This document shows, piece by piece, positions 1-47,942 of a stretch of DNA of 48,060 bases. The notes below the pieces were generated by a model that was not told the origin of the DNA, did not search any database, and worked only from the letters and a program-made list of their open reading frames with translations. Where the stretch lies: positions 1 to 48,060 of the forward strand of contig CADBIO010000002.1 of NCBI GenBank assembly GCA_902794835.1, given 5' to 3'. Within the stretch, counting starts at the first letter, position 1. Each line of letters opens with the position of its first letter. Position numbers and translations under genes: made by a program. This DNA comes from an uncultured Erysipelotrichaceae bacterium (GTDB taxonomy: Bacteria > Bacillota_I > Bacilli_A > RFN20 > CAG-826).

Positions 1-483
1 GATTATGAACGCTATGATACCCAGGCTCTCATGATCCAAAAAGACAAATATCCAGATGTTTCTTACTACATCGTCGATAACATGGTTCCTGAGAAATTGG
101 GACACGTCATGGTCTATTATCGTCGTTGGGAAGGTGAAACCGATCAGCCAATCGTCACCTACACTCTCCGTCACCACAAGACCTTTAATGGTGGCAAAGA
201 ACTTGACTATGAGAAGACCAAGAAGGTCGTTCGTGAGGATATGAACAAGGTTGGTGCAACCATCGATACCACACAAGGCAAAGATGGCGAAATTTATGAA
301 TTCCAAACCTATTATTTCCCACACGTCTATTCTGAAGACTACGCCGCTGGTTGGTATGACAAGGTCGAAGCTATGCAGGGCAAGAACAACACCTACTATG
401 CAGGTGAAATCATGTCCTTCGGCGATATGGATGAAACCGTTGAATACAGTCACGATCTCATCGAAAGATTCTTCGCTGATTAA
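1..483 (+). CDS. Polyunsaturated fatty acid (linoleate) isomerase, PAI-like FAD enzyme; C-terminal part, 5' end outside window
   Basis: Frame is open from base 1 (DYERYDTQALMIQKDKYP...). The blocks DNMxPExLGHVMVYYxRW and YYFPHVxSEDYxAGWYxKVExMQGxxNTxYAGEIMSFG...LIERFF closely match the C. acnes PAI C-terminus as I recall it. Confidence 0.85.
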   Translation, partial: DYERYDTQALMIQKDKYPDVSYYIVDNMVPEKLGHVMVYYRRWEGETDQPIVTYTLRHHKTFNGGKELDYEKTKKVVREDMNKVGATIDTTQGKDGEIYEFQTYYFPHVYSEDYAAGWYDKVEAMQGKNNTYYAGEIMSFGDMDETVEYSHDLIERFFAD

Positions 484-521
484 GATTTTGTTCATTTAGA
501 ACAAATTCGTAGTTTATAATT

Positions 522-556
522 GGGACGCTTAGGGAAATCTAAACGTCCCTTTATTT
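522..556 (+). terminator. Intergenic hairpin (weak terminator or stabilising stem)
   Basis: GGGACGcTTAG...CTAAaCGTCCC followed by TTTATTT. Confidence 0.55.
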
Positions 557-577
557 CAATAACGAAAGGAAAATACG

Positions 578-2137
578 ATGGCAGAAAACATCAAGTTTTA
601 CAAAGACCATTACGATGTGATCATCATTGGCTGTTCGTTAGCTGGCATGAGCGCTGGCATGACTTTGGCCAAAGAAGGCAAATCCGTTTTGATCTTAGAA
701 CGTCACAATTTGCCAGGCGGGCTAGCAACCTCTTTTGTGCGTTCCGGACATGAGATGGAGGCCACCCTCCATGAAATGATGTCCATTGGCAAAGAGGAAG
801 AACGACTCCCTGTCGGTAAATATCTCGACGATATGAAAGTTGCGATCGACTGGCTCCGTGTCCCAGAAGCATTCCGACTCTATGTTCCAACCGACGACAT
901 TGACATTTTGATCCACGCAGGGATTGATTCCGATGGCGTATACGTTGCTGCTAAAGAAATCGAAGAAAAATATCCAGGCAATTTAGAGAAAGTGAACAAG
1001 CTTCTCCATCTTTGCAAAGAGGTCATGGAATCCACCAACTATCTTAATGACCACACCGCCTCAAAAATCGAGCTTCTTAAAAATCACAGCGGATTAGCCA
1101 AAACAGCGGGCTATTCTGCAAAAGAAGTAATGGACGCCTTTGAGATTCCAGAAAAAGTTCAAGCTGTTTTGTCGGCTTATTGGATTTATGTTGGCCAACC
1201 AGTTTCCAGTCTTCCGTTCACGATTTTCGCCTTCTTGTTGGGCGACTATCTGACCGGCGGGTCTTTTGTTGCTAAAAATTTCTCTCATGGCATGTCTGTC
1301 GCGATGGCGGAAAAATGCTTAGAACTCGGTTGCCAAATCGAATATCGCACCGAAGTCACCAAAATCCTTGTCAAAGACGGAAAGGCTTATGGCGTGAGAA
1401 CAGCGCATGGTGAAGAAATTCACGGCCATTACATCATCTCTGGCGTTTATCCTGATGCAGTTTTTGGCCATATGATTGAACCACAAAGCGAAGTTCCTGA
1501 GAAGGCTGTCAAACTCTATCACGGACGCAAAATCGGTGTCACGTGTTTCTCGGTTGTCTTACTTTTAGACCAAACCCCAGAGCAACTCGGCATCAAAGAT
1601 TATTCTATTTTCTCTGGAACCTCCCATTTCGATACCGATGCCTATTGGGCGCAAGGAAGCAAACTCGGTGGCTGGGATTATCTCACCACGATTTGCTTAA
1701 ATTATGCCAACCCAGAACAAATCCCAGAGGGAATGACATCTTTATCGATCACCAATCTGCCACTTCCTGTCGCTTTTGAAGACGTGAAAGCGGACGATTA
1801 TTTTGCCATTAAACGCAAATACGGCAAAGAAATGATCGAATCTATCTCCAAGCTTCTTGGCGTGAACTTGTTAGATCATGTCGTGGAAGTGGAAATTGAA
1901 TCCCCAGCCACGATCTCGCATTATTCCGGCCAATACTTGGGTGGCATTTATGGCTATCAACACAGCATGGACGATGCTATCGCAGCCCGTCTTGAGACTT
2001 ATGGTAAAGAACATTACATCCAGAATTTAACCTGGGCGTCTTCTGCCACATTGGCAGGCGATGGCATGGCTATCAATATCAAGAATGGCCGTATCGCCGC
2101 ACAAGTTGTTGATACTTGGGAAAAGGAGGGCAAATAA
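578..2137 (+). CDS. FAD-dependent oxidoreductase, phytoene desaturase (CrtI)/retinol saturase-like family
   Basis: N-terminal dinucleotide fold YDVIIIGCSLAGMSAG...VLILERHNLPGG; EIESPAT...GGIYG; C-terminal G-D-G...NGRIAA; 519 aa; GGA-type SD. Confidence 0.8.
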   Translation: MAENIKFYKDHYDVIIIGCSLAGMSAGMTLAKEGKSVLILERHNLPGGLATSFVRSGHEMEATLHEMMSIGKEEERLPVGKYLDDMKVAIDWLRVPEAFRLYVPTDDIDILIHAGIDSDGVYVAAKEIEEKYPGNLEKVNKLLHLCKEVMESTNYLNDHTASKIELLKNHSGLAKTAGYSAKEVMDAFEIPEKVQAVLSAYWIYVGQPVSSLPFTIFAFLLGDYLTGGSFVAKNFSHGMSVAMAEKCLELGCQIEYRTEVTKILVKDGKAYGVRTAHGEEIHGHYIISGVYPDAVFGHMIEPQSEVPEKAVKLYHGRKIGVTCFSVVLLLDQTPEQLGIKDYSIFSGTSHFDTDAYWAQGSKLGGWDYLTTICLNYANPEQIPEGMTSLSITNLPLPVAFEDVKADDYFAIKRKYGKEMIESISKLLGVNLLDHVVEVEIESPATISHYSGQYLGGIYGYQHSMDDAIAARLETYGKEHYIQNLTWASSATLAGDGMAINIKNGRIAAQVVDTWEKEGK

Positions 2138-2138
2138 G

Positions 2139-3362
2139 ATGAAAAAATTGAAGATTAAAGGTTTCTTTAAAGACATTACGGGCTCGATGAGAGTTTCTAA
2201 ACGCCGTAATGCTAGCATCAAAAATGCCTCTCCAGTCAACGACTACAAGGACCCAATCAAAGAACTTGCGTTGGAGCTTCACCCGGTCGTGACCCATGTT
2301 ATCGTAAAGAAGGTGGAAGACGTTTCTCCTACCGCCAGAAAATTTACTTTCGTAGCTATCGATGGCGACAAACTTCCTCCTTTTGAGGCGGGACAATACG
2401 TTTCATTGGATTTAGAAATTGACGGCAAGAAAGCCTATCGTCCATATTCAATCTCTTCTGCCCCATTCCAAGCCAGAAGCGGAGAAGAGCCATTCTTTGA
2501 AATCACCGTTCGTAATGGCAGACCGGGACAAGGTTATGTTTCCAGCTACATTTATGCCAACCTGAAAGAAGGCATGAAATTAGAAGCCCATCTCCCTTAT
2601 GGACAATTCCACATCGAGCCATTGCGTGATAGCAAAAACATCGTCGCCTTGGCTGGTGGCAGTGGTATTACGCCATTCTATTCCATGGCGCAAGAGATTG
2701 CCCACGGCACCTTGGATGTTGACCTGACAATCCTTTATGGTTCCGTTTCCCACGATGACATTATCTTGGAAAAACAAATCCAAGCCATCCATTGCCCACG
2801 CGTGAAATTTATCAACGTTATCTCTGGTGAAGGCGCCAAACTCCTCCCAGGTGATGAAAAGGGCTTTATTTCTCGCGACATCATCAAAAAATATTCCGTG
2901 GATCAGGATCCGTCCAATGGCAAAACCACCTATTTCGTGTGCGGACCTCTTCCGATGTATCTCTTCATCAACAAAGAGCTTGAGGCATTGAAAGTCCCAT
3001 ATCGCCGCATTCGCATGGAAGTGTTTGGCTCAACGCCAGATGTGACCAAAAACGAAGGCTACCCAGCAGGAAAAGAAAAAGAAGTCTACAAGATTACCGT
3101 TAAACGCGGCATTCATGAAGACATTATCGACGCCAAGGGATCAGAAACCATCCAAAACGCGATGGAACGCGCGGGAATTCCCCACGAGACCCGTTGCCGT
3201 TCTGGTGCCTGTGGTTGGTGCCGTACTAAAGTCGAGAAAGGCGAATTCTTCGTTCCTTCTGTCGGCGATGGCAGGCGCGCTGCTGATAAGGAATATGGCT
3301 ATGTCCATGCTTGTGCAACCTATCCTCTTTCGGATATGGTGATCAAGATTGAGATTGAATAA
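2139..3362 (+). CDS. NAD(P)H-flavin reductase with C-terminal [2Fe-2S] ferredoxin (FNR-like, PaaE/PDR architecture)
   Basis: RPYSISS (FAD), AGGSGITP and VCGP (NAD), MEVF, then CRSGACGWC...C. True start is ATG 2139 after AGGAGG, 1 nt after the upstream stop. Confidence 0.9.
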   Translation: MKKLKIKGFFKDITGSMRVSKRRNASIKNASPVNDYKDPIKELALELHPVVTHVIVKKVEDVSPTARKFTFVAIDGDKLPPFEAGQYVSLDLEIDGKKAYRPYSISSAPFQARSGEEPFFEITVRNGRPGQGYVSSYIYANLKEGMKLEAHLPYGQFHIEPLRDSKNIVALAGGSGITPFYSMAQEIAHGTLDVDLTILYGSVSHDDIILEKQIQAIHCPRVKFINVISGEGAKLLPGDEKGFISRDIIKKYSVDQDPSNGKTTYFVCGPLPMYLFINKELEALKVPYRRIRMEVFGSTPDVTKNEGYPAGKEKEVYKITVKRGIHEDIIDAKGSETIQNAMERAGIPHETRCRSGACGWCRTKVEKGEFFVPSVGDGRRAADKEYGYVHACATYPLSDMVIKIEIE

Positions 3363-3373
3363 CCAACTTTCTT

Positions 3374-3401
3374 AAAAGGCGTCCTTCGGGACGTCTTTTT
3401 T
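3374..3401. terminator. Bidirectional intrinsic terminator
   Basis: AAAAGGCGTCC-TTCG-GGACGTCTTTTTT between convergent genes. Confidence 0.9.
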
Positions 3402-3435
3402 CAATTCAAGGGATGCGTGTATCTGTTTTTTATTT

Positions 3436-4299
3436 TTATGCTTGAATTGGATGATCCCCGTCGTTGATATAGAGGATACCAAGAACGTTTCGTCCTACAT
3501 AACAAGTAACAGTCGCCATCGGATTGGTATGATAGACTTTTTTAAAGCCAACTCCGTAAAGATAATCAGTTAATTCTTGGACTACCTCTTTTGGGATTGC
3601 TGATTCCGTGATGAAAACGACTTCATGATCGGGGTTATTGAATTCTTCTAACGTGGATTTGGCGTAATCCATCACCCATTTGCGGACAGGCCCTTTGAAC
3701 TTTTTATGGGACTCCAGCTTTCCTTCTTCATTCATCACAATCTGAGGGCGAATTTTCAAAAGATTGGCGCCGAAAGCAGCGACACTGGAGCACCTACCGC
3801 TTTTGTGAAGATAGTTCACGTTTTCAAAACAAAAAGTGGTGCATACTTTATGAGATCTTTCTTTCACGATATTTATCACTTCTTCAAAAGGAGTGCCTTT
3901 GTCTAGCAGACGTTTGGCATAAATGGCTAAGGTCGCTTCGCCTGTTGATAAGGAGCGTGTATCGATTATCGCTACTTTTCCTTGGAATTTTTTAGCTCCA
4001 TTTTCAGCGTGTTCATAGGTGCTGGAGATGCCCGAAGAAATCGAGAAATGTATGATTCGGTCATAGTCCTTAAGAAGGGCTTCAAAATAATTCTCATATT
4101 CTTTTGGGTTTAAGGCGGCGGTGCGAGCGACAGTACCCGTTAACTCCATAAATTCACAAATTTCCTTGGAAGTGACTTCGCCGTCGAATTTCATTTGGTC
4201 CCCGACCATAATCGGAAAAGGGATGAAATGGATGTCATATTCTTTCAACAATTCTTGATTCAAATCGATGGTGGATTCTGCACTGATTGCAATTCTCAT
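3436..4299 (-). CDS. DegV family fatty acid-binding protein (FakB-like)
   Basis: RIAISAESTIDL, ISSGISSTY, IIDTRSLSTG, YLHKSGR, LLKIRPQI motifs; 287 aa. Confidence 0.9.
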   Translation of the reverse strand: MRIAISAESTIDLNQELLKEYDIHFIPFPIMVGDQMKFDGEVTSKEICEFMELTGTVARTAALNPKEYENYFEALLKDYDRIIHFSISSGISSTYEHAENGAKKFQGKVAIIDTRSLSTGEATLAIYAKRLLDKGTPFEEVINIVKERSHKVCTTFCFENVNYLHKSGRCSSVAAFGANLLKIRPQIVMNEEGKLESHKKFKGPVRKWVMDYAKSTLEEFNNPDHEVVFITESAIPKEVVQELTDYLYGVGFKKVYHTNPMATVTCYVGRNVLGILYINDGDHPIQA

Positions 4300-4545
4300 A
4301 CGCTGACATTCCTTCCTGGCGAAATTATGGGCTACAAAAACATCAAAGTCAAACCTTAAATATCAAGATTTCATCGATAGTTTTTATAACTTCAAGAACT
4401 CGTTATGAAGACGAGGAACGAAATCTTTTTTTGCAAATTAATTGAATGTCCAGGCCTTATGCTTTTTAATTTACAAGTCCAAATATTTTATTTTCCCAAA
4501 AATTGGGAAATAAAAATAAGCGGAATCAAAAAAGAGGATAAAGGG

Positions 4546-7347
4546 ATGCTGAAACTAGACCACATTACGAAAATTTATCGCACCAAGGATATGCAGGTCG
4601 ATGCATTAAATGATGTTTCCCTTGCTTTCCGCAAAAATGAATTTGTTGCTATTTTGGGTCCTTCTGGATGTGGAAAGACGACGACTTTGAACATCGTTGG
4701 TGGGTTGGATCATTACACCCACGGCGATTTGGTGATCGATGGCGTTTCCACCAAAGATTTCAAAGATCATGATTGGGATGTTTATCGAAATCATAGGGTT
4801 GGATTTGTTTTTCAATCCTATAACTTAATTCCTCACGAAAATATTCAAGAAAACGTCGAATTAGCCCTAACGATTGCAGGTCTTAGCAAAGAAGAACGTT
4901 CCAAAATGGCGAGAGAGGCTTTAGATCGCGTCGGTTTGGCGGGAATGTATGGGAAAAAGCCAAACGAACTTTCTGGTGGTCAATGCCAAAGAGTCGCCAT
5001 CGCCAGAGCTTTGGTAAACAAGCCAGACATCCTTTTGGCAGACGAGCCGACTGGCGCCTTAGATTCTGTCACCTCGGTTCAAATCATGGATCTCATCAAA
5101 GAGATTTCTCAAGAAAAACTGGTCATTATGGTCACCCATAACCCAGACTTGGCCGAGAAGTACGCAAACCGCATCATTAACCTGTTAGATGGCAAAGTGG
5201 TGGGGGACACCAACCCCTATTCTTTTGAAGAGGAGGCCAAAGAGCGTGATGCCGTGACATCAAAATCTGAAGAGCAACTTGCCAAAGAACGGGCAAAGAT
5301 GTCCTGGTGGACCGCATTCAAACTCTCCGCTAAAAACTTGCTTTCCAAGGCCAAACGGACCTCTTTGATTGTTGTCGCCTCTTCTATTGGCATCGTTGGT
5401 GTTTCGGCCGTTCTTGCTGTTTCCCAAGGCGTGACTGGCTATATTGGAGGAATGCAGGATGATATGTTGTCGGGTTATCCGGTGACAGTTGCCGAATCTG
5501 CCTACGATTTGAGTTCGATTCTTTCGGGGACGAATTCTATGGAACAAGTCAATGCCGTCGCTCATTCCTGGAGGGACGGAAAGATCGACGTTCAATTCGT
5601 CACCGAAACTTTGGTGAACGTTTCTGACAGCATGAGTTCGGCTGCCTTGAAAAATGAAATTACGCAAGACTACATTCAATTCGTTGATGACATGCCCAAA
5701 AATTATTACGCCGCACTAGGAAAAGAATATGGCATCAACTTGAAAAACAATCTCTATACTCATTCGGACATTCACTTGAAAGATTACACCGAAGAACAAT
5801 TGAGGACCCAAAAATATTCCATCACCGCGATTACCTCCATCTGCAGCACCATTTTGGAGAACATCAACGATGGAGATTACTCGGCTTATTCTGCGATGGT
5901 GGATCAATATACCGACGCCATCAACCAATGTTTGCCAGAAAAAGAATACGTTCTTTCCCAATATGATGTGGTTTCTGGCAAATATGCCGAAGGTGAAAAC
6001 GAGATGATGATTGTCTTAAACCATCGGAACCAATTGACGGAATTTGTCCTTACTTTACTTGGATATTATGGCCAAGATGAATTCGCGAACGCGATTTATT
6101 ATTACTCTGACCAAAAAGAAAAAATGGATATGGATCTTTGGGAAAAGCAACAATCTTTCACCATTGATCAATTAGTAGGAAAAGAATACACGTATTACCC
6201 CAATAATTCCTTATACACTTATAACAGCAGCTATGATGCAGGCTCAACCACCAACCCTTTGGCGTGGCAGGCATATGATTATGCGTTCGTTGATGATGGT
6301 TCTTTAACCAATGGAGAAAATATGAAGGTCGTAGGAATTCTTGCCCCAAAAGAAGAGGTTTCCTATGGTTGCATGGATTCGGGTCTGTATTTTACCAAAG
6401 CCTTTGCTGAGCACTACCTTGAGCAAAACATGGAATCGGAAGTCACGAAATTCATCAGAGCTTATTGTGAAACCAATCCGGATGCTGATGGATTTACTTC
6501 CGCGGTCATCAATTTCTCCAATCACAAATTTATCTCCGGAATCGGTTTCATTTATGATGTCAACTTCCCAGACGGAATCGGATCTTCCAGCATCCAAACA
6601 TTTGAAGGCGCTGGCTTAATTGGCGAACAAAACGCCTTATCTGGCATCATGAGTTTAATTGGCGGTGGTGGATCAGGCGGTTCTTCCTCAAGCATCCTTC
6701 TACAGAAGATGGCATTATGCACCCTTAGAGATGTCGGTGGGAATTCTCTTCCAGGAACGATTAAGATCTATCCGAAGAGTTTTGCGGATAAATATTTGGT
6801 CACCGATTATTTAGATCGTTGGCAAAGCGAAGAAACCATTACTTTGTCGACGGGAACGGTTTTGACTCCCGACCAACGTAACGACATCAAATATACAGAC
6901 AATCTTGCCATCATCATCGCATTGATTAATGGGGTTATTAATATTGTCACGATCGCCTTGGTTGCATTCACCTCCCTTTCTTTGATTGTTTCCACCGTTA
7001 TGATCGGAATTATCACTTATGTGTCTGTTATGGAACGTGTCAAAGAGATCGGCGTCATTCGTTCTCTGGGTGGAAGAAAGAGGGACGTGTCTCATCTATT
7101 TAACGCAGAGACTTTAATCATCGGATCCCTATCTGGGGTGTTTGGATTAATTGTCACTTATTTATTTGAAATCATTTTGAACGCCACCATAGGGGTTTAT
7201 TATGGCATTGGCATGATTGCCAATCTCAGTTGGTGGACTGCCGTTGTAATTCTTGCGTTAAGCGTTGCCTTAACAATGATTGCCGGCATCATTCCGGCCA
7301 GAGCCGCGGCTAGACAAGACCCTGTTGTAGCGTTACGGACTGAATAA
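4546..7347 (+). CDS. MacB/FtsX-type ABC transporter, fused ATPase-permease
   Basis: Walker A GPSGCGKT, LSGGQ, ILLADEPTG, VTH; C-terminal ERVKEIGVIRSLG...AARQDPVVALR; start at ATG 4546 after AAGAGG. Confidence 0.92.
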   Translation: MLKLDHITKIYRTKDMQVDALNDVSLAFRKNEFVAILGPSGCGKTTTLNIVGGLDHYTHGDLVIDGVSTKDFKDHDWDVYRNHRVGFVFQSYNLIPHENIQENVELALTIAGLSKEERSKMAREALDRVGLAGMYGKKPNELSGGQCQRVAIARALVNKPDILLADEPTGALDSVTSVQIMDLIKEISQEKLVIMVTHNPDLAEKYANRIINLLDGKVVGDTNPYSFEEEAKERDAVTSKSEEQLAKERAKMSWWTAFKLSAKNLLSKAKRTSLIVVASSIGIVGVSAVLAVSQGVTGYIGGMQDDMLSGYPVTVAESAYDLSSILSGTNSMEQVNAVAHSWRDGKIDVQFVTETLVNVSDSMSSAALKNEITQDYIQFVDDMPKNYYAALGKEYGINLKNNLYTHSDIHLKDYTEEQLRTQKYSITAITSICSTILENINDGDYSAYSAMVDQYTDAINQCLPEKEYVLSQYDVVSGKYAEGENEMMIVLNHRNQLTEFVLTLLGYYGQDEFANAIYYYSDQKEKMDMDLWEKQQSFTIDQLVGKEYTYYPNNSLYTYNSSYDAGSTTNPLAWQAYDYAFVDDGSLTNGENMKVVGILAPKEEVSYGCMDSGLYFTKAFAEHYLEQNMESEVTKFIRAYCETNPDADGFTSAVINFSNHKFISGIGFIYDVNFPDGIGSSSIQTFEGAGLIGEQNALSGIMSLIGGGGSGGSSSSILLQKMALCTLRDVGGNSLPGTIKIYPKSFADKYLVTDYLDRWQSEETITLSTGTVLTPDQRNDIKYTDNLAIIIALINGVINIVTIALVAFTSLSLIVSTVMIGIITYVSVMERVKEIGVIRSLGGRKRDVSHLFNAETLIIGSLSGVFGLIVTYLFEIILNATIGVYYGIGMIANLSWWTAVVILALSVALTMIAGIIPARAAARQDPVVALRTE

Positions 7348-10642: not shown

Positions 10643-12082
10643 ATGACCAAAACAAAAATCTCGACGAAACAGCTTTTGATTTGGGTCGCTTTAGCTGCCA
10701 TTGCCTTTACGGCATTTGGGTTCGGCGGGACACGTGGCGTTTCTTTTGCTTCTGCGCTGATCTTTGTGCTGGGCGTTTTCATGTTCCTTGGCAAGAAAGA
10801 AAAGATGGCCAAAGGGGACAAGAAATCCTTTTTCATATGGGTGCTGCCCTTCGCAGTTTTTGTATTGTTGATTTCTTTTGGGCGTTTTTGGAGTACGTAT
10901 CATTACGATGCGGGAGCAGGGTCGATCCGTTGGTTTTCCTATTTTATCGCGGCGTTGTTTAATGTTCTTGGCGTTGTTGGCTATGCCATGGTCGGTCATT
11001 GTTTGTCGTTGGGAGAAAACTCGGAAGGCAAAACAAAAGAGAGACTTTTCGAAGTCATCTTGTGTGCTCTTGCCTTGCACGTTCTCATCAATTTGATTAT
11101 CACACTGGCTAATTATGGCCCGTTCTATCGAACGCTTTATGCGGGCAAGAGCTATTATTATGGTTCTGTTGAATACCCTGTCGCCAACGAAAGAATGATT
11201 TTGGACGGTTTTACTATCGCTACCGTTTCCACGCAGTATGGGGACATTTCTTCTTTTTTGCTTGCGGCAACTCTCCCATCCTTGCTTTTTATCTCTTTAA
11301 AAGAAAATAAAATTGGTTTCTCCATCGCCGCCGTTAGTGGAGGCATCGGTTTGTTGGATTTAGTCTTGATGCCAAATCATTTGGCTTTATTGCTTTTGAT
11401 CCCTGTTTTTTCGATTGCCGTTTTCGTTCGTTTTGTGAAAACAGGGATAAAAACCCCTTTGTGGGAAAAGATTGTTGGCTTTGCTATGCTGGCAATGGTC
11501 GCGATTGTGGTCTTCTTGATGATCGGTGTGGCTGCAAATGGTAATAACAACTATGGCCCATTAAGCAAAATTTTTAATAATGGCAGACTGACTCAACCGA
11601 TCAATCAAATCATCAACGCAGTCTTCAAAAACAACTATGCTTGGAATTGGAAAAGCATTTTCTTTGGCATGAACGTTTATTCCGGCTATAGTCCATTGTC
11701 TTTGAAAACTAGTTTTTGGATGCAGACAGAAATCACTTGGGTCAACATCAACCTTCACACTTTCGAATTTGTGGCGCTGATGGAAGGCGGATTTATCGCG
11801 TTTATTGCCCTTTGCCTATTTATGGCCAGCCTTTTCCCGATGTTCCGAAATCATTTGAGGAGAGAAGAAAAGGCAAATCCTTGGGTATTAATCAGCGCGG
11901 TTTTTGTCCTCGGCTATTTCTTATATCAAAGCCTTTTGTTCACAATGTTCCCTTATATTTATGATGTTGGTCTTTATGTGAGTGCATTTTCATCCAATGC
12001 GTTCTTCTATTTGACCGTTTTGCTTATCTTTTTCTCTTATCGGAAAATCTATTCCTTAAAAAAGAAAGGGGGCGTAGCATGA
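10643..12082 (+). CDS. Polytopic membrane protein, O-antigen ligase/Wzy-like
   Basis: About 12 hydrophobic segments; large late loop ending LHTFEFVALMEGGFIAF, resembling the H...ExGxxG ligase motif; lies next to glycosyltransferases. Confidence 0.5.
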   Translation: MTKTKISTKQLLIWVALAAIAFTAFGFGGTRGVSFASALIFVLGVFMFLGKKEKMAKGDKKSFFIWVLPFAVFVLLISFGRFWSTYHYDAGAGSIRWFSYFIAALFNVLGVVGYAMVGHCLSLGENSEGKTKERLFEVILCALALHVLINLIITLANYGPFYRTLYAGKSYYYGSVEYPVANERMILDGFTIATVSTQYGDISSFLLAATLPSLLFISLKENKIGFSIAAVSGGIGLLDLVLMPNHLALLLLIPVFSIAVFVRFVKTGIKTPLWEKIVGFAMLAMVAIVVFLMIGVAANGNNNYGPLSKIFNNGRLTQPINQIINAVFKNNYAWNWKSIFFGMNVYSGYSPLSLKTSFWMQTEITWVNINLHTFEFVALMEGGFIAFIALCLFMASLFPMFRNHLRREEKANPWVLISAVFVLGYFLYQSLLFTMFPYIYDVGLYVSAFSSNAFFYLTVLLIFFSYRKIYSLKKKGGVA

Positions 12083-13392
12083 AAATCAAGGTTTGTAGCA
12101 CAGCTATTTGCGTCTTGCTTCTGGCAAGTTGCGTGAAAACCAACGAACTTTATGATCGGGGACAATACATTGATGGAGCTGATTTCACGAAGATTTTCTA
12201 CACCGATCACGACCCTTTGTCTTCGCTAAGTATTAGCAAAGAATCTTCTGTTTCCTTAGATGCCTCTCAATACTGCAACGGAACTCGTGGACTATCTACA
12301 AAAACAAATAAGACGGGGTCGATTGATTTTACCCCAATGCAGATGAGTGTATCTGTTTCTCAAACGAAAGCGTTAGATGGCACCTTATCGTTGGATGTGA
12401 CCATCCCCAAATTAAACCCCTATGGGAGTAACTTGCCTGTTTCCATCCTCCTAGGAAAGACCTACGAGGGCAAATATGCCATTTCCTCCTCTAAGGGAGC
12501 TGACTTTAACGTCCAATCCTATTCTTTTGAAGTGACTGACGATGATATTGTTGACGTCACAATGGATGGCGCCAAATTTACCTTTAGTCCGAGCAAAATC
12601 GGCGAAACGACATTGACTTTGAAGGCCAATGTAACCGTGTCTGGAACCGATTATGAGCTTCAAACTTCAATCCAATTTACTTTTGCCAACCCATACGGAA
12701 CAAGAACTGGCTATTCCGAGAGATATCCCGAGGTTTTCTCTTATCAAGGATCTTACTTAAGCGCAGACCCGTCCGATGATTGGAATCTTTCTTATGCCAA
12801 AACCAACAACGACTCCTCCTTTATCGGAAAAAGCTTTGGGCGAAGCAAATGTTTGGCAACAACCGACGAATCATTTAAATCCGGCTATCTTTCAAAAATC
12901 TACGACGGACAAATGTATTGTGAGGGTTACCATTCCCGCGCTCTGGTGGCGTTAGACCAGAACGGCTACTCGGCCTTCTTCCCCAAAACACTCGACACTG
13001 GAGATTATTTCCTGATGTCGTTCCGGGGCGGATCGAATGACGATACTGGGAGCAATCATAATGCTGGCTCGCCACGGATCTCTTCTTTTGATCTTTCATT
13101 GGACTTTTATTACCGAGATTCTGAAGGTTATCGCAAGGTTACCGTCGTTTCTGACGATGTCATTGTCGAGACTGACAACGGCGGCGAGGGGTGCACCTTC
13201 TTTGGATTCAAATTCTCGGAAATTGGGGTCGATCCAAAAGGAATTCTTGGCATGGGCCTGCGATATAACGATTTCCAAGATCCTCAATATGCATTCGCGT
13301 CTGAAGAGACTTGCAATCAAAAAGAACCGAAACAATATTCTTGGGGCCTTTTGGTCTATGAACTGATGTTCCCGGATTCAACCTGGAAATAG
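12079..13392 (+). CDS. Hypothetical lipoprotein (Ser/Thr-rich, beta-rich)
   Basis: Signal peptide with lipobox LASC; ATGA overlap with upstream gene. Confidence 0.75.
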   Translation: MKIKVCSTAICVLLLASCVKTNELYDRGQYIDGADFTKIFYTDHDPLSSLSISKESSVSLDASQYCNGTRGLSTKTNKTGSIDFTPMQMSVSVSQTKALDGTLSLDVTIPKLNPYGSNLPVSILLGKTYEGKYAISSSKGADFNVQSYSFEVTDDDIVDVTMDGAKFTFSPSKIGETTLTLKANVTVSGTDYELQTSIQFTFANPYGTRTGYSERYPEVFSYQGSYLSADPSDDWNLSYAKTNNDSSFIGKSFGRSKCLATTDESFKSGYLSKIYDGQMYCEGYHSRALVALDQNGYSAFFPKTLDTGDYFLMSFRGGSNDDTGSNHNAGSPRISSFDLSLDFYYRDSEGYRKVTVVSDDVIVETDNGGEGCTFFGFKFSEIGVDPKGILGMGLRYNDFQDPQYAFASEETCNQKEPKQYSWGLLVYELMFPDSTWK

Positions 13393-24633: not shown

Positions 24634-24692
24634 AAAAGAGCCTTTATTGAACAATGCCTTCTTTTAGGCAGAATTCAAACTGGCTCTTTTTT
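24634..24692. terminator. Long interrupted bidirectional hairpin terminator
   Basis: AAAAGAGCC..TTGAA..TGCCT-loop-AGGCA..TTCAA..GGCTCTTTT between convergent genes. Confidence 0.7.
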
Positions 24693-25407
24693 AATGCGGA
24701 TAATTAGGGTTGTTTGGATAATTCGGTGGGTTTTGTTGCTGAGAGGCTTGCTGAGGATTCTCTTTTCCTTCGCCTTGTATTTTATCGTCTTCAAAATAAT
24801 TAAAATCTTCCAAACTCTTTTCAAAAATTGAATGGCAAAGGCGATTTAATCTAATAGCACGGGCGATGTAGGCTTGAATGACAACGGCATACCAAATGAT
24901 TGCCGTAAGCCATAATGGTACGAGCAAATAAGAACCCCAGAATTCGCCTACCCAAGTTGGGGTGGACACCACAGCAGGCCATTGCCGCAATAAATTAATT
25001 CCCCAGAAAACAGCATAATTGTCGGGATTACCCCAATCGAAATTGACCAACAAGGTGGAGAATTCGCCAAAATAATTTCTTGCCCAACTATGGTAAACAG
25101 CAGAATAGATGATCCAGATAAGCAAAGAGAAAAGACCGATAAAGAAGGGGATTAAGGAAGCTTTGATCAAGAAACGATTGTTTTTCTCGCCCCCGTATTT
25201 TCTTAATTGTTCTGGCGAGGAAATAACACGATAAACAACCGCTTCGTGGACTTCATAATCCATACGTTTGCTGAAACGGATTGTTACGAAACGAATTAAG
25301 ACACCGATTAATCCGACGATGATAAAAAGCAACACCAAGATACAAAGCAAGACAATTAAAAGGCGCTTATCATTTTCTGATAACGTGAAGTCGACAAGGA
25401 ATCTCAT
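24691..25407 (-). CDS. Hypothetical membrane protein
   Basis: Three hydrophobic segments, Q/N/P tail; SD GGAGGAG; ATGA overlap. Confidence 0.75.
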   Translation of the reverse strand: MRFLVDFTLSENDKRLLIVLLCILVLLFIIVGLIGVLIRFVTIRFSKRMDYEVHEAVVYRVISSPEQLRKYGGEKNNRFLIKASLIPFFIGLFSLLIWIIYSAVYHSWARNYFGEFSTLLVNFDWGNPDNYAVFWGINLLRQWPAVVSTPTWVGEFWGSYLLVPLWLTAIIWYAVVIQAYIARAIRLNRLCHSIFEKSLEDFNYFEDDKIQGEGKENPQQASQQQNPPNYPNNPNYPH

Positions 25408-25979
25408 AGATCGTCTCCTCCTTCATCGTGTTCTGAAATATCAATTAGTTCTGGGCCACCCGTGGACTCGTTTTCAGAGGATTGATCATGAAAGTTGTTT
25501 GGCGAGTCGATTTGCGGATTCAAATTTTGCGGCTGTTCAATTTGTGGGTTCTCCTGAACGGAAGGGGTTGGAATTTCGCCATATTGGTTTGGGCTGAATG
25601 GCTGAGGCTGTTGGTAAATCGAAGTTGGTTGTTGAGGCTGAGTTGGCTGGCCAGGGAGAGGTTGTTGCCCTTGAGTTTGCGGCTGATAATAGTTTTGCTG
25701 AATATAAACATTGCTGTTGGTGCTTGGCTGCGTTGGTTGGGGAGCGGGGGCGTTAGCGGCCACCGAAGCACGGTATTCTTTGATCTCTTGCACACGAACA
25801 TCCTCTGGGATTGGCTCGAAGAATTTCTCTCCCCTGAAGAAACGGATGAGACCTTTTATATCCCGGTAGGCCATCAAGCCCAAGCCAAAGACAGCCACCA
25901 GAGCCACCAAAACGAGGAAAAACGGCAGTAGGAAAAAATAAACCAGTCCAAGTCCGAAATTTTTCAACGCTTGTCTCAT
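25404..25979 (-). CDS. Hypothetical membrane protein with Gln/Pro-rich tail
   Basis: N-terminal hydrophobic stretch, low-complexity C-terminus; ATGA overlaps both sides. Confidence 0.7.
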   Translation of the reverse strand: MRQALKNFGLGLVYFFLLPFFLVLVALVAVFGLGLMAYRDIKGLIRFFRGEKFFEPIPEDVRVQEIKEYRASVAANAPAPQPTQPSTNSNVYIQQNYYQPQTQGQQPLPGQPTQPQQPTSIYQQPQPFSPNQYGEIPTPSVQENPQIEQPQNLNPQIDSPNNFHDQSSENESTGGPELIDISEHDEGGDDL

Positions 25980-26890
25980 GCCTTATTTTTCCTTTCTTGT
26001 GTCTTAAATAATAAACTCGAAAGCAAACTTGATAAAGAAACGGATATAAAAATTGTCAAAAACAACAACGGAGACACCATAGGTGGCAAAGATTGGAAGA
26101 AGAAGGCAGAAAGATAAAACGAGGCCATTATCAGCAAACCGAGAATCAAGAACACCCACCAAGGATTCTTTCGAAAGAGATCTCTAGAATGAGTTAGACA
26201 AAGATAAATCCCTATTACGCCCAATAGATATCCAACCATCGGGGAAAAGAAGGACAAGATGATTGCTAAAACCAAAAAGAGCAGGGACGTACCCTCTCCA
26301 ACAAGAGAAAAAACCAGCGAATCTCTTTCCTCAATCTTCTCAATATTATGAATGCTGAAGATGATGACCAAGAAAGAAATCCCTGCCTCAATCAAAGCGT
26401 ATACGTAGAGGAAGGCGGGTACAATCTCGCGGATGTTCGCTTTTTCTTGCAAACCAAGCAATGTAAGAGCCGTTTCGATGACATCGACTCCATAAATCCC
26501 ACGAATTAAAAGGAGCATTAAATAATTGATCCCCAATTGTAACAAAGAGACCATCAAAACCGCCCAACTCGATGGGAACTCTCTTTTCAGTAGGAAGCCA
26601 AACAAAGCCCCAGTCAGAATCGTTGGCACAACATCAAACAGACTTGAGCTTAGGTCATAACAAGTAGAGGCAACGACAACAAGAATTGCTCCGACGACAT
26701 AAGGGATAATGTATTTCGGCTGACAATAATAGGCAGTCAAAGCGCTGATTAAAGGCAAAAAAAGCAAGATGACAAAGGCAGATAAAGGAACGAAGGTCGC
26801 TAAAATCGCCAAGGCGGTGATTGCCGCCACGGAGATTCCCATCAAAGCGATGTTCTGCGTTGGAGTGCTTCTTTCTTTCAAAAGTCTCAT
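25976..26890 (-). CDS. Polytopic membrane protein (possibly YybS/DUF2232 or ECF S-component-like)
   Basis: Many TM helices; family call tentative. Confidence 0.55.
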   Translation of the reverse strand: MRLLKERSTPTQNIALMGISVAAITALAILATFVPLSAFVILLFLPLISALTAYYCQPKYIIPYVVGAILVVVASTCYDLSSSLFDVVPTILTGALFGFLLKREFPSSWAVLMVSLLQLGINYLMLLLIRGIYGVDVIETALTLLGLQEKANIREIVPAFLYVYALIEAGISFLVIIFSIHNIEKIEERDSLVFSLVGEGTSLLFLVLAIILSFFSPMVGYLLGVIGIYLCLTHSRDLFRKNPWWVFLILGLLIMASFYLSAFFFQSLPPMVSPLLFLTIFISVSLSSLLSSLLFKTQERKNKA

Positions 26891-45018: not shown

Positions 45019-45762
45019 ATGGCAAAAGAACTTGGTAGAAAAATAAGGTCCATACGTCTTAAAAGGAATTTAAGCCAGTCTGAAATGGCAGATATTTTAG
45101 GATATTCCGGAAAAGGAATGATCAGCCGTTTGGAAAACGATTCGGCGGAAATGAGCTACGAAAAACTAATGCTCTTGCTGTCGCGTTTCGGCGAAGATTT
45201 TGAAGGGGAAACGATCGAGACCCTTGCTCCAAAGGCTGATTCCACAGTGATCAAGTCAGCTAACCTTGTTCTCAAGGCCATTGGTTTCGCAGAACTTGAC
45301 GACGTGTTGTCTTTAAAGGTTGCGCCTCATCAACGTGACTTTGTTGCGGAAAACGCGCTCGCTATCGCGGAGGCCTATGCTGCCGAACACGAAGGTGGGA
45401 AAACGCAGTGTTTTGTGGCCTATCACAAGAACGCTCCGGTTGGTTTTGCTTCTATTGCCTTAGGCTCGATAGGAGCCAAAAGAGAAAAAGAGTGGATGAA
45501 AAAATCCTATTGTCTGTGGCGAATCATGATAGATATGAACTATCAAGGCAAAGGTTTTGGCAAAGAACTGCTTACCAGCGTCATTAGGTGGTGCGCTACA
45601 AAGCCCCTAGGCGAAGCCGATGCCATATACACAAGCTGCGATGGAAAAAACGAGGGGGCGATATCCCTATATCAGGCGGCCGGCTTTGAAGTCACGGGCG
45701 AAAAGATCGATGGAGAAATTGTTCTTAAGCGGAGTTTAATGGGAGGGCATTTGGATGAATGA
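45019..45762 (+). CDS. XRE helix-turn-helix plus GNAT acetyltransferase fusion
   Basis: IRLKRNLSQSEMADILGYS..ISRLEN; RIMIDMNYQGKGFGK, N..A..LY...GF (diamine acetyltransferase-like). Confidence 0.85.
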   Translation: MAKELGRKIRSIRLKRNLSQSEMADILGYSGKGMISRLENDSAEMSYEKLMLLLSRFGEDFEGETIETLAPKADSTVIKSANLVLKAIGFAELDDVLSLKVAPHQRDFVAENALAIAEAYAAEHEGGKTQCFVAYHKNAPVGFASIALGSIGAKREKEWMKKSYCLWRIMIDMNYQGKGFGKELLTSVIRWCATKPLGEADAIYTSCDGKNEGAISLYQAAGFEVTGEKIDGEIVLKRSLMGGHLDE

Positions 45763-46627
45763 TAAATATGAATTGGTTCGATTCGAAAAAGACGGTCTGA
45801 TTCTTGACGTTAATGTGTCTCCAAGCGAGGACACTGTATGGCTTTCTTTGAATGAGATGTGCCTTTTGTTCGGGCGCGACAAATCGGTTATTTCAAGACA
45901 TATCAAGAATGTATTTAAAGAAGGGGAGTTAGACTCGAAACGAGTTGTTGCAAAAAATGCAACTACTGCTTCAGATGGGAAGGTTTATGAAGTGACGTTT
46001 TATAACCTAGATGTAATCATTTCGGTTGGCTACCGCGTGAAATCTAAAAACGGGGTGGCTTTTCGAAAATGGGCAAACTCTGTCCTAAAAGAGTATTTGT
46101 TACGTGGGTATGTAGTTGATAGTAGCCGCGCTCTTGTGACCAACGAGAATTACATTAACCTTCTAAATAAGGTTGAAAGTATCGACACGAGGTTGACCAA
46201 AATCGAGGAAGAACATATCCCGGACTTAGAAAAGGTTTTCTTCGACGGCGAATATTTAAACGCTAGAGTATTTATAAAAGAACTGTTTTCTAAGGCAAAA
46301 ACAAGCATTGTGGTCGTCGACCCTTATGCCGACGCAAAGGCGCTTGGTTTTCTTTCGAGCAAAGACAACGCGATTCCGGCAAAAATAATCGTTTCATCCA
46401 AGACCAAACTTACGCAGGGCGATGTTGATGCATTTGTCCTTCAGTATGGAGCATTAACTGTTAAGAGTGACGATTCGTTCCACGACCGCTTTGTCGTCAT
46501 AGACGGCAAGTCTTTATATCACCTTGGAACTTCGTTGAATTATGTCGGCAGGAAAACATTTGCGATTTCGGAACTGACGGACGAGCGGCTTGTGAAAAGC
46601 GTGATTGATAGGATAAACGCCAATTAA
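45755..46627 (+). CDS. RhuM family protein with C-terminal PLD-like domain
   Basis: TVWLS...VISRHIKNVFKEGEL, YNLDVIISVGYRVKS..G..FRKWA; C-terminal VVDPY...FHDRFVVID..YHLGTSLN. Confidence 0.8.
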   Translation: MNDKYELVRFEKDGLILDVNVSPSEDTVWLSLNEMCLLFGRDKSVISRHIKNVFKEGELDSKRVVAKNATTASDGKVYEVTFYNLDVIISVGYRVKSKNGVAFRKWANSVLKEYLLRGYVVDSSRALVTNENYINLLNKVESIDTRLTKIEEEHIPDLEKVFFDGEYLNARVFIKELFSKAKTSIVVVDPYADAKALGFLSSKDNAIPAKIIVSSKTKLTQGDVDAFVLQYGALTVKSDDSFHDRFVVIDGKSLYHLGTSLNYVGRKTFAISELTDERLVKSVIDRINAN

Positions 46628-46716
46628 GGTTCGCGAACGTCTATAAACATGACAAAAAGGCGGATAGATCAAGCTAGAGAGGGAAGCTGCGTCTGGCGAG
46701 ATTCGATAGTGGGGGG

Positions 46717-46747
46717 AAGCCGAGTGAAATATCTCGGTTTTTCTTTT
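46717..46747 (+). terminator. Intrinsic terminator
   Basis: AAGCCGAG-tgaaatat-CTCGGTTTTTCTTTT. Confidence 0.8.
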
Positions 46748-46809
46748 GCCTTCTAAGGACGAAGGATTTTGGACAAAATAGGATGGATTGACTTAGACAA
46801 CCACACAAA

Positions 46810-46905
46810 TTGTCGTTGTCCAAAGTCACTTATTCAAAATTGGACAAAAAGACTTATCCAGCATAGATTAGGCCTCTTCGGAGGTCTTTTCTCGTGTCTT
46901 GACTC
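46810..46905 (+). repeat. Repeat module copy 2
   Basis: TTGTCGTTGTCCAAA-N15-TTGGACAAAA ... hairpin AGGCCTC-TTCG-GAGGTCT-TTT ... CGTGTCTTGACTC. Confidence 0.75.
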
Positions 46906-46910
46906 TTTTT

Positions 46911-46961
46911 AAGTGCAAGTTGCACTTTAAGATTGCACTTTAAAGCATTTTATGATAATAT
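46911..46961 (+). promoter_or_regulatory. Fic promoter with adjacent operator-like repeats
   Basis: Palindrome AAGTGCAA-G-TTGCACTT, direct repeat TTGCACTTTAA x2, TTGCAC-N17-TAATAT. Confidence 0.7.
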
Positions 46962-46967
46962 TTTCCT

Positions 46968-47942
46968 GTGGAAAATAATTATACAAACCGTTACATATTG
47001 GAAACTGGCATTGGTCTTCAAGATGTCGACCATTTAAAGAATTCATCATATTTCCTTCAGGAATCCGAAAGATATTTAAAAGGCGAAATCTCGCTAGATG
47101 AATTAGATGACATCGTGAACTCCTATTACAAGAGTAAACCAGCCGTGGGAGATAGAAGCGAGGAAGCTGATAAAGTCTCGATTAGAATAGCTAGAATAAT
47201 CAATGAGGATTATTTCACTTTTACCGTTGGGCAGCTACTTTCTATTCATCGAATTTTATTTGAAGGTATTTTGGAACACCCTGGCCAATTAAGAACCTAC
47301 AATTTCTCAAAAAAAGAATGGGTTCTTGATGGCGCATCGGTCATCTATGGGGACTATCGTGAATTAGAGGCGACGCTTCAATATGATTTTGATATCGAAA
47401 AGCGGTTTGATTATTCAAAACTTTCCATGGATGAAATCGTTGAGCATCTTGCAATCTTTATTGCCAACCTTTGGCAAATTCACGTTTTTGAAGAGGGCAA
47501 TACCAGAACTACTGCGGTATTTACCATTAAATATTTAAGGAGTTTAGGCTTTGATGTAACCAATGATACATTTGCTAAAAACGCGTGGTATTTCAGAAAC
47601 TCTTTAGTGAGGGCAAACTACACAAACCTACAAAAAGGAATTTATGAAGATAGAACGTATCTCATTAAGTTTCTCAAAAATTTGTTATTCAATGAGAATA
47701 ACCGGTTGGAAAACAAAGAATTGCATATTGTTCCTCTTTCTTCTGTGTTTAATGAGACAAAAGAAGCTAGATTACTCCGTTTGTTAAAAGGTAATCCGAC
47801 TCTGAGAACAGACGAACTAGCGAGGGAATTAGGCGTTTCGTTAAGGACGATTAAAAGCATTATTGCCGCCTTAAGAAAAGACGGGAAACTAGAGCGCGTA
47901 GGCGGAAAGAAATATGGTCACTGGGAGGTAAAGCAACTATGA
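46968..47942 (+). CDS. Fic domain protein with VbhA-like N-terminus and C-terminal HTH
   Basis: Fic motif HVFEEGNTRTT; N-terminal TGIGLQDVD helix; C-terminal ELARELGVSLRTIK...ERVGGKKYGHWEV. Confidence 0.88.
   Translation: MENNYTNRYILETGIGLQDVDHLKNSSYFLQESERYLKGEISLDELDDIVNSYYKSKPAVGDRSEEADKVSIRIARIINEDYFTFTVGQLLSIHRILFEGILEHPGQLRTYNFSKKEWVLDGASVIYGDYRELEATLQYDFDIEKRFDYSKLSMDEIVEHLAIFIANLWQIHVFEEGNTRTTAVFTIKYLRSLGFDVTNDTFAKNAWYFRNSLVRANYTNLQKGIYEDRTYLIKFLKNLLFNENNRLENKELHIVPLSSVFNETKEARLLRLLKGNPTLRTDELARELGVSLRTIKSIIAALRKDGKLERVGGKKYGHWEVKQL

Follow-up and report, generated by a model that had tools for sequence, protein, structure and literature searches.

We analyzed a stretch of 48,060 nucleotides (hereafter, the window), positions 1-48,060 at the start of contig C2 in the genome of an uncultured Erysipelotrichaceae bacterium (G000; 1.39 Mb, 96 contigs, 91.6% complete). 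The genes at its left end make up, with a probability that we put at roughly 0.6, the right half of a conserved cluster of six genes that handles unsaturated fatty acids, in which an enzyme of the polyunsaturated fatty acid isomerase (PAI) type would act first and a reductase driven by NAD(P)H would follow. As a source of the enzymes by which dietary fats are hydrogenated in ruminants, the cluster is a strong candidate. The fatty-acid composition of milk and meat is determined by ruminal biohydrogenation, and milk-fat depression results from the trans-10 shift; the cluster supplies concrete genes to express, cultured carriers, and metagenome markers that can be counted against trans-10/trans-11 ratios. 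The genes and the elements between and beside them lie in the window as follows.

1..483, plus strand: PAI-type gene, C-terminal 160 codons, 5' end open where it is cut at the contig start (match to PDB 2b9w)
484..577, plus strand: spacer of 94 nt between the PAI-like and CrtI-like genes, without a terminator-like site in a consensus scan
578..2137, plus strand: CrtI-family FAD flavoprotein, 519 aa, proposed catalytic subunit of a conjugated-fatty-acid C=C reductase (Pfam, NCBIfam, AlphaFold2 with Foldseek, conserved neighborhood)
2139..3362, plus strand: FNR-type NAD(P)H:flavin reductase with a C-terminal plant-type [2Fe-2S] domain, 407 aa, proposed electron-donor subunit (domains, adjacency, predicted complex)
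3374..3399, no single strand: bidirectional intrinsic terminator hairpin of the operon and the convergent DegV gene (RNA folding)
3436..4299, minus strand: DegV/FakB-family fatty-acid-binding protein, 287 aa, a neighbor only and not a conserved cluster member (Pfam DegV)

The first three genes share one orientation, and a gap of 1 nt separates the CrtI-like stop codon from the FNR start, an ATG at 2139 that is backed by a conserved N-terminus in all 12 aligned homologues. The hairpin at 3374-3399, with A and T runs at its sides, lies between the two convergent stop codons. It was not listed by the consensus terminator scan and was recognized by folding instead, at -16.4 kcal/mol (z = -4.3; none of 200 shuffles equaled it). 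A preliminary description of this DNA, made from the sequence alone, had reported three co-oriented genes, the last two 1 nt apart, with a terminator common to the convergent DegV gene, and all of its coordinates proved correct.

The arrangement recurs well beyond this genome. In a set of 41 relatives' genomes, from which 14 CrtI-like/FNR loci were fetched, the CrtI-like and FNR-[2Fe-2S] genes were adjacent and in the same order at every locus. A wider set, with one genome per species, comprised the best 80 loci of 310 relatives, and the counts out of 80 below refer to these. The FNR-[2Fe-2S] gene stood directly downstream of the CrtI-like gene at 78 of the 80, mostly with gaps of -4 to +30 nt, and the other two loci end at most 2 bases past the CrtI-like gene. 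A PAI homologue was found upstream, on the same strand, at 59 loci, or 59 of the 73 with room for one. The preliminary description had made its proposal depend on co-conservation of the three genes, and this is what the wider set displays, with the pair and its PAI neighbor recurring together. The carriers include many uncultured rumen Bacillota and some Actinomycetota. Two carriers named in the records are cultured: Lachnospiraceae bacterium YH-ros2226 (L068) has all six genes of the cluster described below, and Stecheria intestinalis (L070) has the CrtI-like/FNR pair but no PAI gene with it. The tree of the CrtI-like proteins mixes families and phyla (Atopobiaceae, for example, fall within a group of Erysipelotrichaceae and Lachnospiraceae), which points to horizontal spread.

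Clustering the neighboring open reading frames (ORFs) of the 80 loci revealed that a second module belongs to the cluster. Immediately upstream of the PAI gene, and divergent from it, lie genes for a ligase of the ANL type (~450 aa), an acyl carrier protein (ACP, ~85 aa) and an acyl-ACP thioesterase (~235 aa), such that ligase, carrier and thioesterase are read in one direction and isomerase, CrtI-like flavoprotein and FNR-[2Fe-2S] protein in the other. Pfam identified AMP-binding, PP-binding, and the N and C domains of Acyl-ACP_TE; the PP-binding scores were near the cutoff (20.0 and 23.6 versus 20.8 bits), and the DS phosphopantetheine motif of the carrier was kept in at least 90% of 27 sequences. 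Searches of PDB and NCBIfam with the ligase returned a generic ANL enzyme without a specific assignment. All six genes stand together at 42 of the 80 loci, many of the others being cut by contig ends, and at one locus (L112) the six are co-directional. Regulators of the FadR-like GntR or TetR type occur in or beside several loci. The source genome carries the module, assigned by Pfam, on the 3.4 kb contig C91.

C91 1955-3280, minus strand: AMP ligase
C91 1689-1943, minus strand: ACP
C91 985-1686, minus strand: acyl-ACP thioesterase

C91 ends 137 nt past the ligase start, which fits the spacer of 133 nt between ligase and PAI in the closest relative (L052). We therefore infer, as the likely layout in the source genome, that C91 in reverse is followed by the window, with ~1 kb from the 5' part of the PAI gene missing between them. 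In run X1, a DNA contig extends 1088 nt upstream of the window. The preliminary description missed the module, which was invisible to it because the contig ends at the window start.

The isomerase is represented in the window by its C-terminal part. The ORF at 1..483 matches residues 280-423 of the PAI of Cutibacterium acnes (C. acnes; PDB 2b9w, E = 6e-41), and no Pfam or NCBIfam model matched this fragment. At 160 of 160 positions the fragment is identical to a database protein of 486 aa, P0124 (residues 327-486), and P0124 in turn aligns with 2b9w end to end (E = 6e-115). Since the fragment equals the C-terminus of a protein that is full-length relative to PAI, the window gene is cut by the contig end and not broken, and its earlier assignment to the PAI type is upheld through P0124. 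A full-length homologue in a relative's genome (G017) matches 2b9w with E = 3.8e-138, and the identity of the PAI homologues to the C. acnes enzyme is 50-57%. The residue aligned to Arg88 of PAI is kept in 54 of 54 full-length homologues and that aligned to Phe193 in 53 of 54; we take these two residues to be the carboxylate gate of PAI. P0124 carries both, and the window copy ends, at the contig start, before that part of the protein. One PAI homologue (P0168), 67% identical to the L052 protein, bears in NCBI and UniRef the name of an anaerobic rumen fungus, Anaeromyces robustus, and gene transfer between bacteria and fungi of the rumen is a possible reason.

The 578..2137 protein has an N-terminal FAD fold and resembles the CrtI family distantly. 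Its best NCBIfam matches were carotenoid isomerase (TIGR02730, residues 12-464), at 76.5 bits against a cutoff of 586.9, and crtI_fam (TIGR02734), at 55.8 bits against 238.1, both below the curated thresholds. An AlphaFold2 model (predicted local distance difference test, pLDDT, 80.3; predicted template-modeling score 0.81) was compared with known structures by Foldseek, and the top matches were the carotenoid desaturases CrtD (4rep; E = 1.8e-25, template-modeling scores 0.77/0.82) and CrtI (4dgk). On this model, the protein is a divergent member of the CrtI fold, and the family assignment of the preliminary description holds at the level of fold, the curated family cutoffs not being reached. 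Cluster names in the ESM Atlas (“phytoene desaturase”, “prolycopene isomerase”, “retinol 13,14-reductase”) are generic and serve as leads only; the database names of the CrtI-like and FNR proteins are similarly generic (“FAD-dependent oxidoreductase”, “phytoene dehydrogenase-like”, “protoporphyrinogen oxidase”).

Its partner is more readily recognized. In the 2139..3362 protein, FAD_binding_6, NAD_binding_1 and a C-terminal Fer2 domain all score above the Pfam cutoffs. The motifs RPYS and GGSGITP (NAD(P)H) are invariant in 12 of 12 homologues, as are C353, C358, C361 and C392, which form the pattern C-x4-C-x2-C...C. The domains and motifs of an FNR-[2Fe-2S] protein, as it had been called before, are thus all present, preceded by a strongly conserved N-terminal extension of ~50 residues. 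When the alignments of both proteins were used to predict a complex, the CrtI-like/FNR-[2Fe-2S] pair scored 0.95, compared with 0.01 for the best of three controls. Among solved complexes, 58 of 80 attain that mark, as do 2 of 110 mismatched pairs, counts that hold only roughly with user-supplied alignments. Contact agreement between prediction runs was at least 96%, and the pLDDT of the partner was at least 90. In the predicted interface, residues 4-48 of the N-terminal extension and the loop of the cluster cysteines (357-362, 376-388) face residues 44-59 and 443-474 of the flavoprotein. The prediction supports a tight complex of the two proteins. We know of no solved complex of this kind, and so it seems unlikely that the score stems from the model's memory. 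The earlier idea of a PAI-type isomerase coupled to a CrtI-like reductase fed by the FNR protein is thereby carried forward by co-location, adjacency and predicted binding; the part that it gave to DegV does not stand, as described below.

The same evidence bears on the reading of the CrtI-like protein as a reduced-flavin-dependent isomerase resembling the plant enzyme CRTISO, which would catalyze, for example, cis/trans isomerization or double-bond migration of the conjugated acid while the FNR protein does no more than keep the flavin reduced. CRTISO requires reduced FAD without net redox change, and the best NCBIfam match of our protein, aligned over residues 12-464, is carotenoid isomerase. 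However, a stoichiometric, translationally coupled NAD(P)H subunit that is predicted to bind tightly and is present at 78 of 80 loci exceeds what priming a flavin would need, and the cluster already holds an isomerase. We consider this reading improbable and favor a reductase.

In the route that we propose, the substrate of the PAI-type FAD enzyme would be a free acid with methylene-interrupted cis,cis double bonds, linoleate or alpha-linolenate, and its product a conjugated acid. A hydride from NAD(P)H would pass to the FNR protein, and single electrons would travel via the [2Fe-2S] center to the FAD of the bound CrtI-like subunit. The reduced flavin would then saturate one double bond of the conjugated diene, giving an 18:1 acid, much as retinol saturase reduces a C=C bond of a conjugated polyene; the product would be trans-10 18:1 if the regiochemistry of the isomerase matches that of C. 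acnes PAI, in line with the path from 18:2 via t10,c12 conjugated linoleic acid (CLA) to t10-18:1 that the preliminary description had suggested. The ligase, the dedicated carrier and the acyl-ACP thioesterase would load the fatty acid as a thioester and later release it, in an order of steps that we leave free. The carrier would most likely offer the hydrophobic, toxic substrate to the reductase, and the 18:1 product could also supply the host membrane.

The direction of this chemistry is suggested by the electron donor. FNR-[2Fe-2S] proteins pass NAD(P)H electrons to their partners, and NAD+ is a strongly unfavorable acceptor for C-C desaturation; for these reasons, we favor the reductive direction. 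The opposite course would be a biosynthetic cluster, in which a carrier-bound fatty acid is desaturated by the CrtI-like protein, conjugated by the PAI-like enzyme and released as a conjugated polyene acid. Together, ligase, ACP and thioesterase do make a motif of biosynthesis, desaturation is the typical activity of CrtI enzymes, and the fold resembles that of 4rep and 4dgk. Yet the partner is of the NAD(P)H-donor type with its NAD motif intact, desaturation against NAD+ is unfavorable, the hosts are fermentative anaerobes, and the host of the window appears incapable of fatty acid synthesis, all of which makes biosynthesis very unlikely. Indeed, a profile search of the 91.6%-complete genome found no ketoacyl synthase (PF00109), the control search being positive in 14 of 14 reference genomes. 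Oleate hydratase (PF06100, MCRA) was also absent from the profile search of this genome. Because it lacks a detectable ketoacyl synthase and carries five DegV/FakB genes, the host is probably a fatty-acid auxotroph living on free gut fatty acids.

The cluster is associated with ruminants. Rumen or ruminant labels (RUG, hRUG, RGIG with host and organ, ruminal_MAG) appear in 46 of the 80 record titles, and the other 34 name no host. Sequence nearly identical to that of the window was found in bovine and sheep gut runs from 10 studies, six of them RNA libraries. One RNA-library contig (2579 nt, positions 544-3122) spans the junction between the CrtI-like and FNR genes; another, from run X16 (1485 nt), reaches from 156 nt upstream of the window to position 1329 and bridges the spacer between the PAI and CrtI-like genes. 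Runs X16 and X17 were counted as one data set, because their contig tables are identical, though they come from different studies and years, and they are probably one data set deposited twice. The DegV region and positions 3150-4500 are barely covered by RNA-library contigs, which is no sign that they are silent.

Several observations weigh against the hydrogenation cluster proposed here. The RNA-library contigs may stem from DNA, and they prove neither transcription nor a single transcript. The chemistry of the CrtI-like protein is unreadable from homology, because it scores far below every curated family cutoff, and all six enzyme activities, together with the trans-10 regiochemistry and the role of the carrier, are inferred. 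The substrate forms also appear to conflict, as judged from the sequences: the arginine gate points to a free acid and the carrier module to a thioester. Moreover, 14 of the 73 CrtI-like loci with room for a PAI gene lack one (the other 7 loci are too short), and in the tree of CrtI-like proteins (FastTree, local supports only) PAI-less loci are scattered among PAI-linked ones, with 11 changes between the two states. In two genomes of the same genus (G020 and G015), PAI and the module lie 22 kb from a 48%-identical CrtI-like/FNR pair.

The isomerase, in turn, often stands without the pair, as judged from an even draw of the phylum comprising 399 genomes, each at least 90% complete. A PAI-like gene was present in 10 of these, none of which had a close CrtI-like orthologue; two had paralogues of 32-33% identity on other contigs. 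Around the 10 PAI genes, one had the ligase, ACP and thioesterase, three had a homologue of a 939-aa Fe-S flavoprotein, and the rest had neither or lay on a short contig. CrtI-like matches with E ≤ 1e-60 were found in 15 of the 399 genomes including the source, the other 14 being only 29-35% identical; close CrtI-like orthologues are therefore taxonomically patchy, with none in this draw outside the source genome.

The loci without PAI lend some weight to the notion that the CrtI-like/FNR pair acts on a plant lipid of the rumen other than a fatty acid (phytol, phytenic acid, carotenoids or other isoprenoids), its adjacency to PAI reflecting a shared lipid-detoxification regulon. Besides the 14 loci without PAI, the CrtI family normally handles isoprenoids, and distant paralogous pairs occur in other contexts, with TetR, an OYE-type enoate reductase or PlsY as neighbors. 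Against this, PAI-less and PAI-linked loci intermingle on the tree, separated by very short distances, and the same cluster holds an acyl-ACP thioesterase and a ligase of the fatty-acid type. We regard a plant-lipid substrate as distinctly improbable. Because the PAI-less loci are scattered over the tree, we read PAI linkage as the common state, repeatedly lost or moved.

The paralogous pairs (29-35% identity) are found, for example, at L046:8088-13446 (G028), L048:5969-11317 (G031), L050 (G023) and L045 (G006). Their contexts include a place behind a TetR gene and before a gene for a 685-aa enoate-reductase-like protein (OYE + Pyr_redox_2), one beside PlsY and one beside a FadR-like GntR gene. 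Since these contexts vary, the two-component enzyme appears to represent a broader family that acts on several substrates.

The Fe-S flavoprotein (770-980 aa; Fer4 + Fer4_20 + Pyr_redox_2, GltD/NfnB-like, with ~300 N-terminal residues lacking a Pfam match) is encoded within 10 kb of the CrtI-like gene at 22 of the 80 loci, and immediately behind the FNR gene at 17 of the 22. Examples are L124:12724-15543 and, in the source genome, C30 (L133:1519-4467) and C45 (L134:4102-6402). Both source-genome copies are flanked by HypB-like (CobW/HypB/UreG) and HypA genes. Possible roles are those of an alternative reductase, an electron-input module or a nickel-linked enzyme. At the PAI-less Anaerovoracaceae/Clostridiales loci L100, L110, L114, L116 and L131, the CrtI-like and AMP ligase genes still diverge, and genes for DUF5692 and 2-hydroxyacyl-CoA dehydratase (HGD-D) recur beside them.

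A further point that weighs on the proposed route concerns its product, since sequence cannot tell trans-10 from trans-11 regiochemistry. The same enzymes could serve the main trans-11 route, from 18:2 through c9,t11-CLA to t11-18:1, or act chiefly on alpha-linolenate or longer polyunsaturated fatty acids. Lachnospiraceae, Oscillospiraceae and Anaerovoracaceae from ruminants fed forage and grain commonly carry the cluster, its PAI homologues are no more than 50-57% identical to the C. acnes enzyme, and that enzyme itself yields several products from 18:3, according to an excerpt of one study (PMC7339423). On the other side, the residues aligned to the PAI gate are invariant, no Butyrivibrio record is among the best 80 loci, and the classical Butyrivibrio isomerase is described, in the portion of a report consulted, as membrane-bound, unlike PAI (PMC12254105). 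We judge the trans-11 or broader route unlikely, though a credible contender, and retain trans-10 18:1 as the conditional product.

Whether the cluster matters for the rumen as a whole is a larger claim. A 2026 review still describes the hosts and enzymes of specific biohydrogenation steps as poorly resolved (PMC13464031), and among 28 cultured rumen species in another study, C. acnes alone formed trans-10 intermediates (PMC7339423). A tendency toward higher Solobacterium (P = 0.054) in lambs with more trans-10 18:1, given in part of another study (PMC8355377), is too weak and was not used. It is possible, though on balance somewhat doubtful, that the cluster is the missing basis of ruminal biohydrogenation in uncultured Bacillota, combining carrier-assisted conjugation of the PAI type with a two-component CrtI-fold/FNR ene-reductase, and that its carriers, and not C. 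acnes, drive the trans-10 shift.

Compared with known systems, the cluster shares some parts with each. PAI is known as a stand-alone enzyme. The homologues described here have full-length homology to it (E 6e-115 to 4e-138), the FAD-binding N-terminus and the aligned gate residues; they differ in standing within a six-gene cluster with a reductase and a carrier module, at ~50-57% identity. Retinol saturase and CRTISO are likewise FAD enzymes with the CrtI fold, and the best profile of our protein is carotenoid isomerase, whereas its scores are far below the cutoffs and its proposed substrate is a fatty acid. To our knowledge, an obligate FNR-[2Fe-2S] partner is no feature of the retinol saturase/CRTISO enzymes. 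Class I FNR-[2Fe-2S] reductases (phthalate dioxygenase reductase/PaaE/GbcB-type) have the same domain order and cofactor motifs, but their known partners are oxygenases of aerobes, whereas the protein described here is paired with a CrtI-like flavoprotein, in strict anaerobes, and has a conserved N-terminal extension with a predicted docking role.

Among the biohydrogenation pathways, that of Butyrivibrio similarly isomerizes and then reduces with NADH-derived electrons, as outlined in an excerpt (PMC4478896), and differs in its isomerase, which is described as membrane-bound and is not PAI-like (PMC12254105). The multi-gene route of Lactiplantibacillus plantarum (CLA-HY/CLA-DH/CLA-DC/CLA-ER) also leads from linoleate to CLA and 18:1, according to the part of the source cited (PMC13365329); its intermediates are 10-hydroxy and 10-oxo compounds, and its enzymes (a hydratase, a short-chain dehydrogenase/reductase, a decarboxylase-like isomerase and an enone reductase) belong to families that the cluster does not contain. 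The Butyrivibrio CLA reductase is the only one known to have been sequenced; its sequence was reported in 2007, yet it is absent from KEGG, COG and Pfam, as noted in the excerpt of PMC4478896. Searching plasmids by tblastn with the CrtI-like protein, aimed at Butyrivibrio chromids, gave only two matches of 25% identity, from unrelated genera. The putative two-protein CrtI-like/FNR reductase appears to be undescribed so far; the Butyrivibrio CLA reductase was compared by its description only, and possible kinship with it is the main point bearing on novelty. Full-text literature searches, supplementary files aside, found no description of a PAI/CrtI-like/FNR cluster or of a CrtI-type fatty-acid reductase, in agreement with the preliminary description, which had known of none for this gene combination. 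If the proposal is true, the pairing of a CrtI-fold enzyme with an FNR-[2Fe-2S] subunit of its own would represent a new kind of anaerobic C=C reductase.

The convergent DegV gene had been proposed as a component of the same system. The 3436..4299 protein matches Pfam DegV at 184 bits (cutoff 27), DegV proteins bind fatty acids, and the gene shares its terminator with the operon, so that a role in delivering substrate could be imagined. However, a DegV match was found near only one of the 80 loci, with a weak 22% identity, and near none of 20 loci from relatives, and the gene is one of five DegV paralogues in the source genome. We rejected it as a member of the cluster on these grounds, and a delivery role is highly improbable.

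Elsewhere the window carries chromosomal housekeeping genes, among them those for enolase, TsaBDE, PcrA/UvrD, LigA, SecA, PrfB and UvrB. At 4405-7347, just past DegV and on the opposite strand to it, lies a gene for a 980-aa MacB-like protein in which an ABC ATPase is fused to an FtsX-type permease. No Pfam match at E ≤ 1e-5 was obtained for five ORFs (191-479 aa) at 10643-13392 and 24691-26890. At the right end, 45019-47942, HTH-GNAT, RhuM-family and Fic/DOC genes coincide with a drop in GC content to 39%, and this islet may be mobile or toxin-antitoxin-like.

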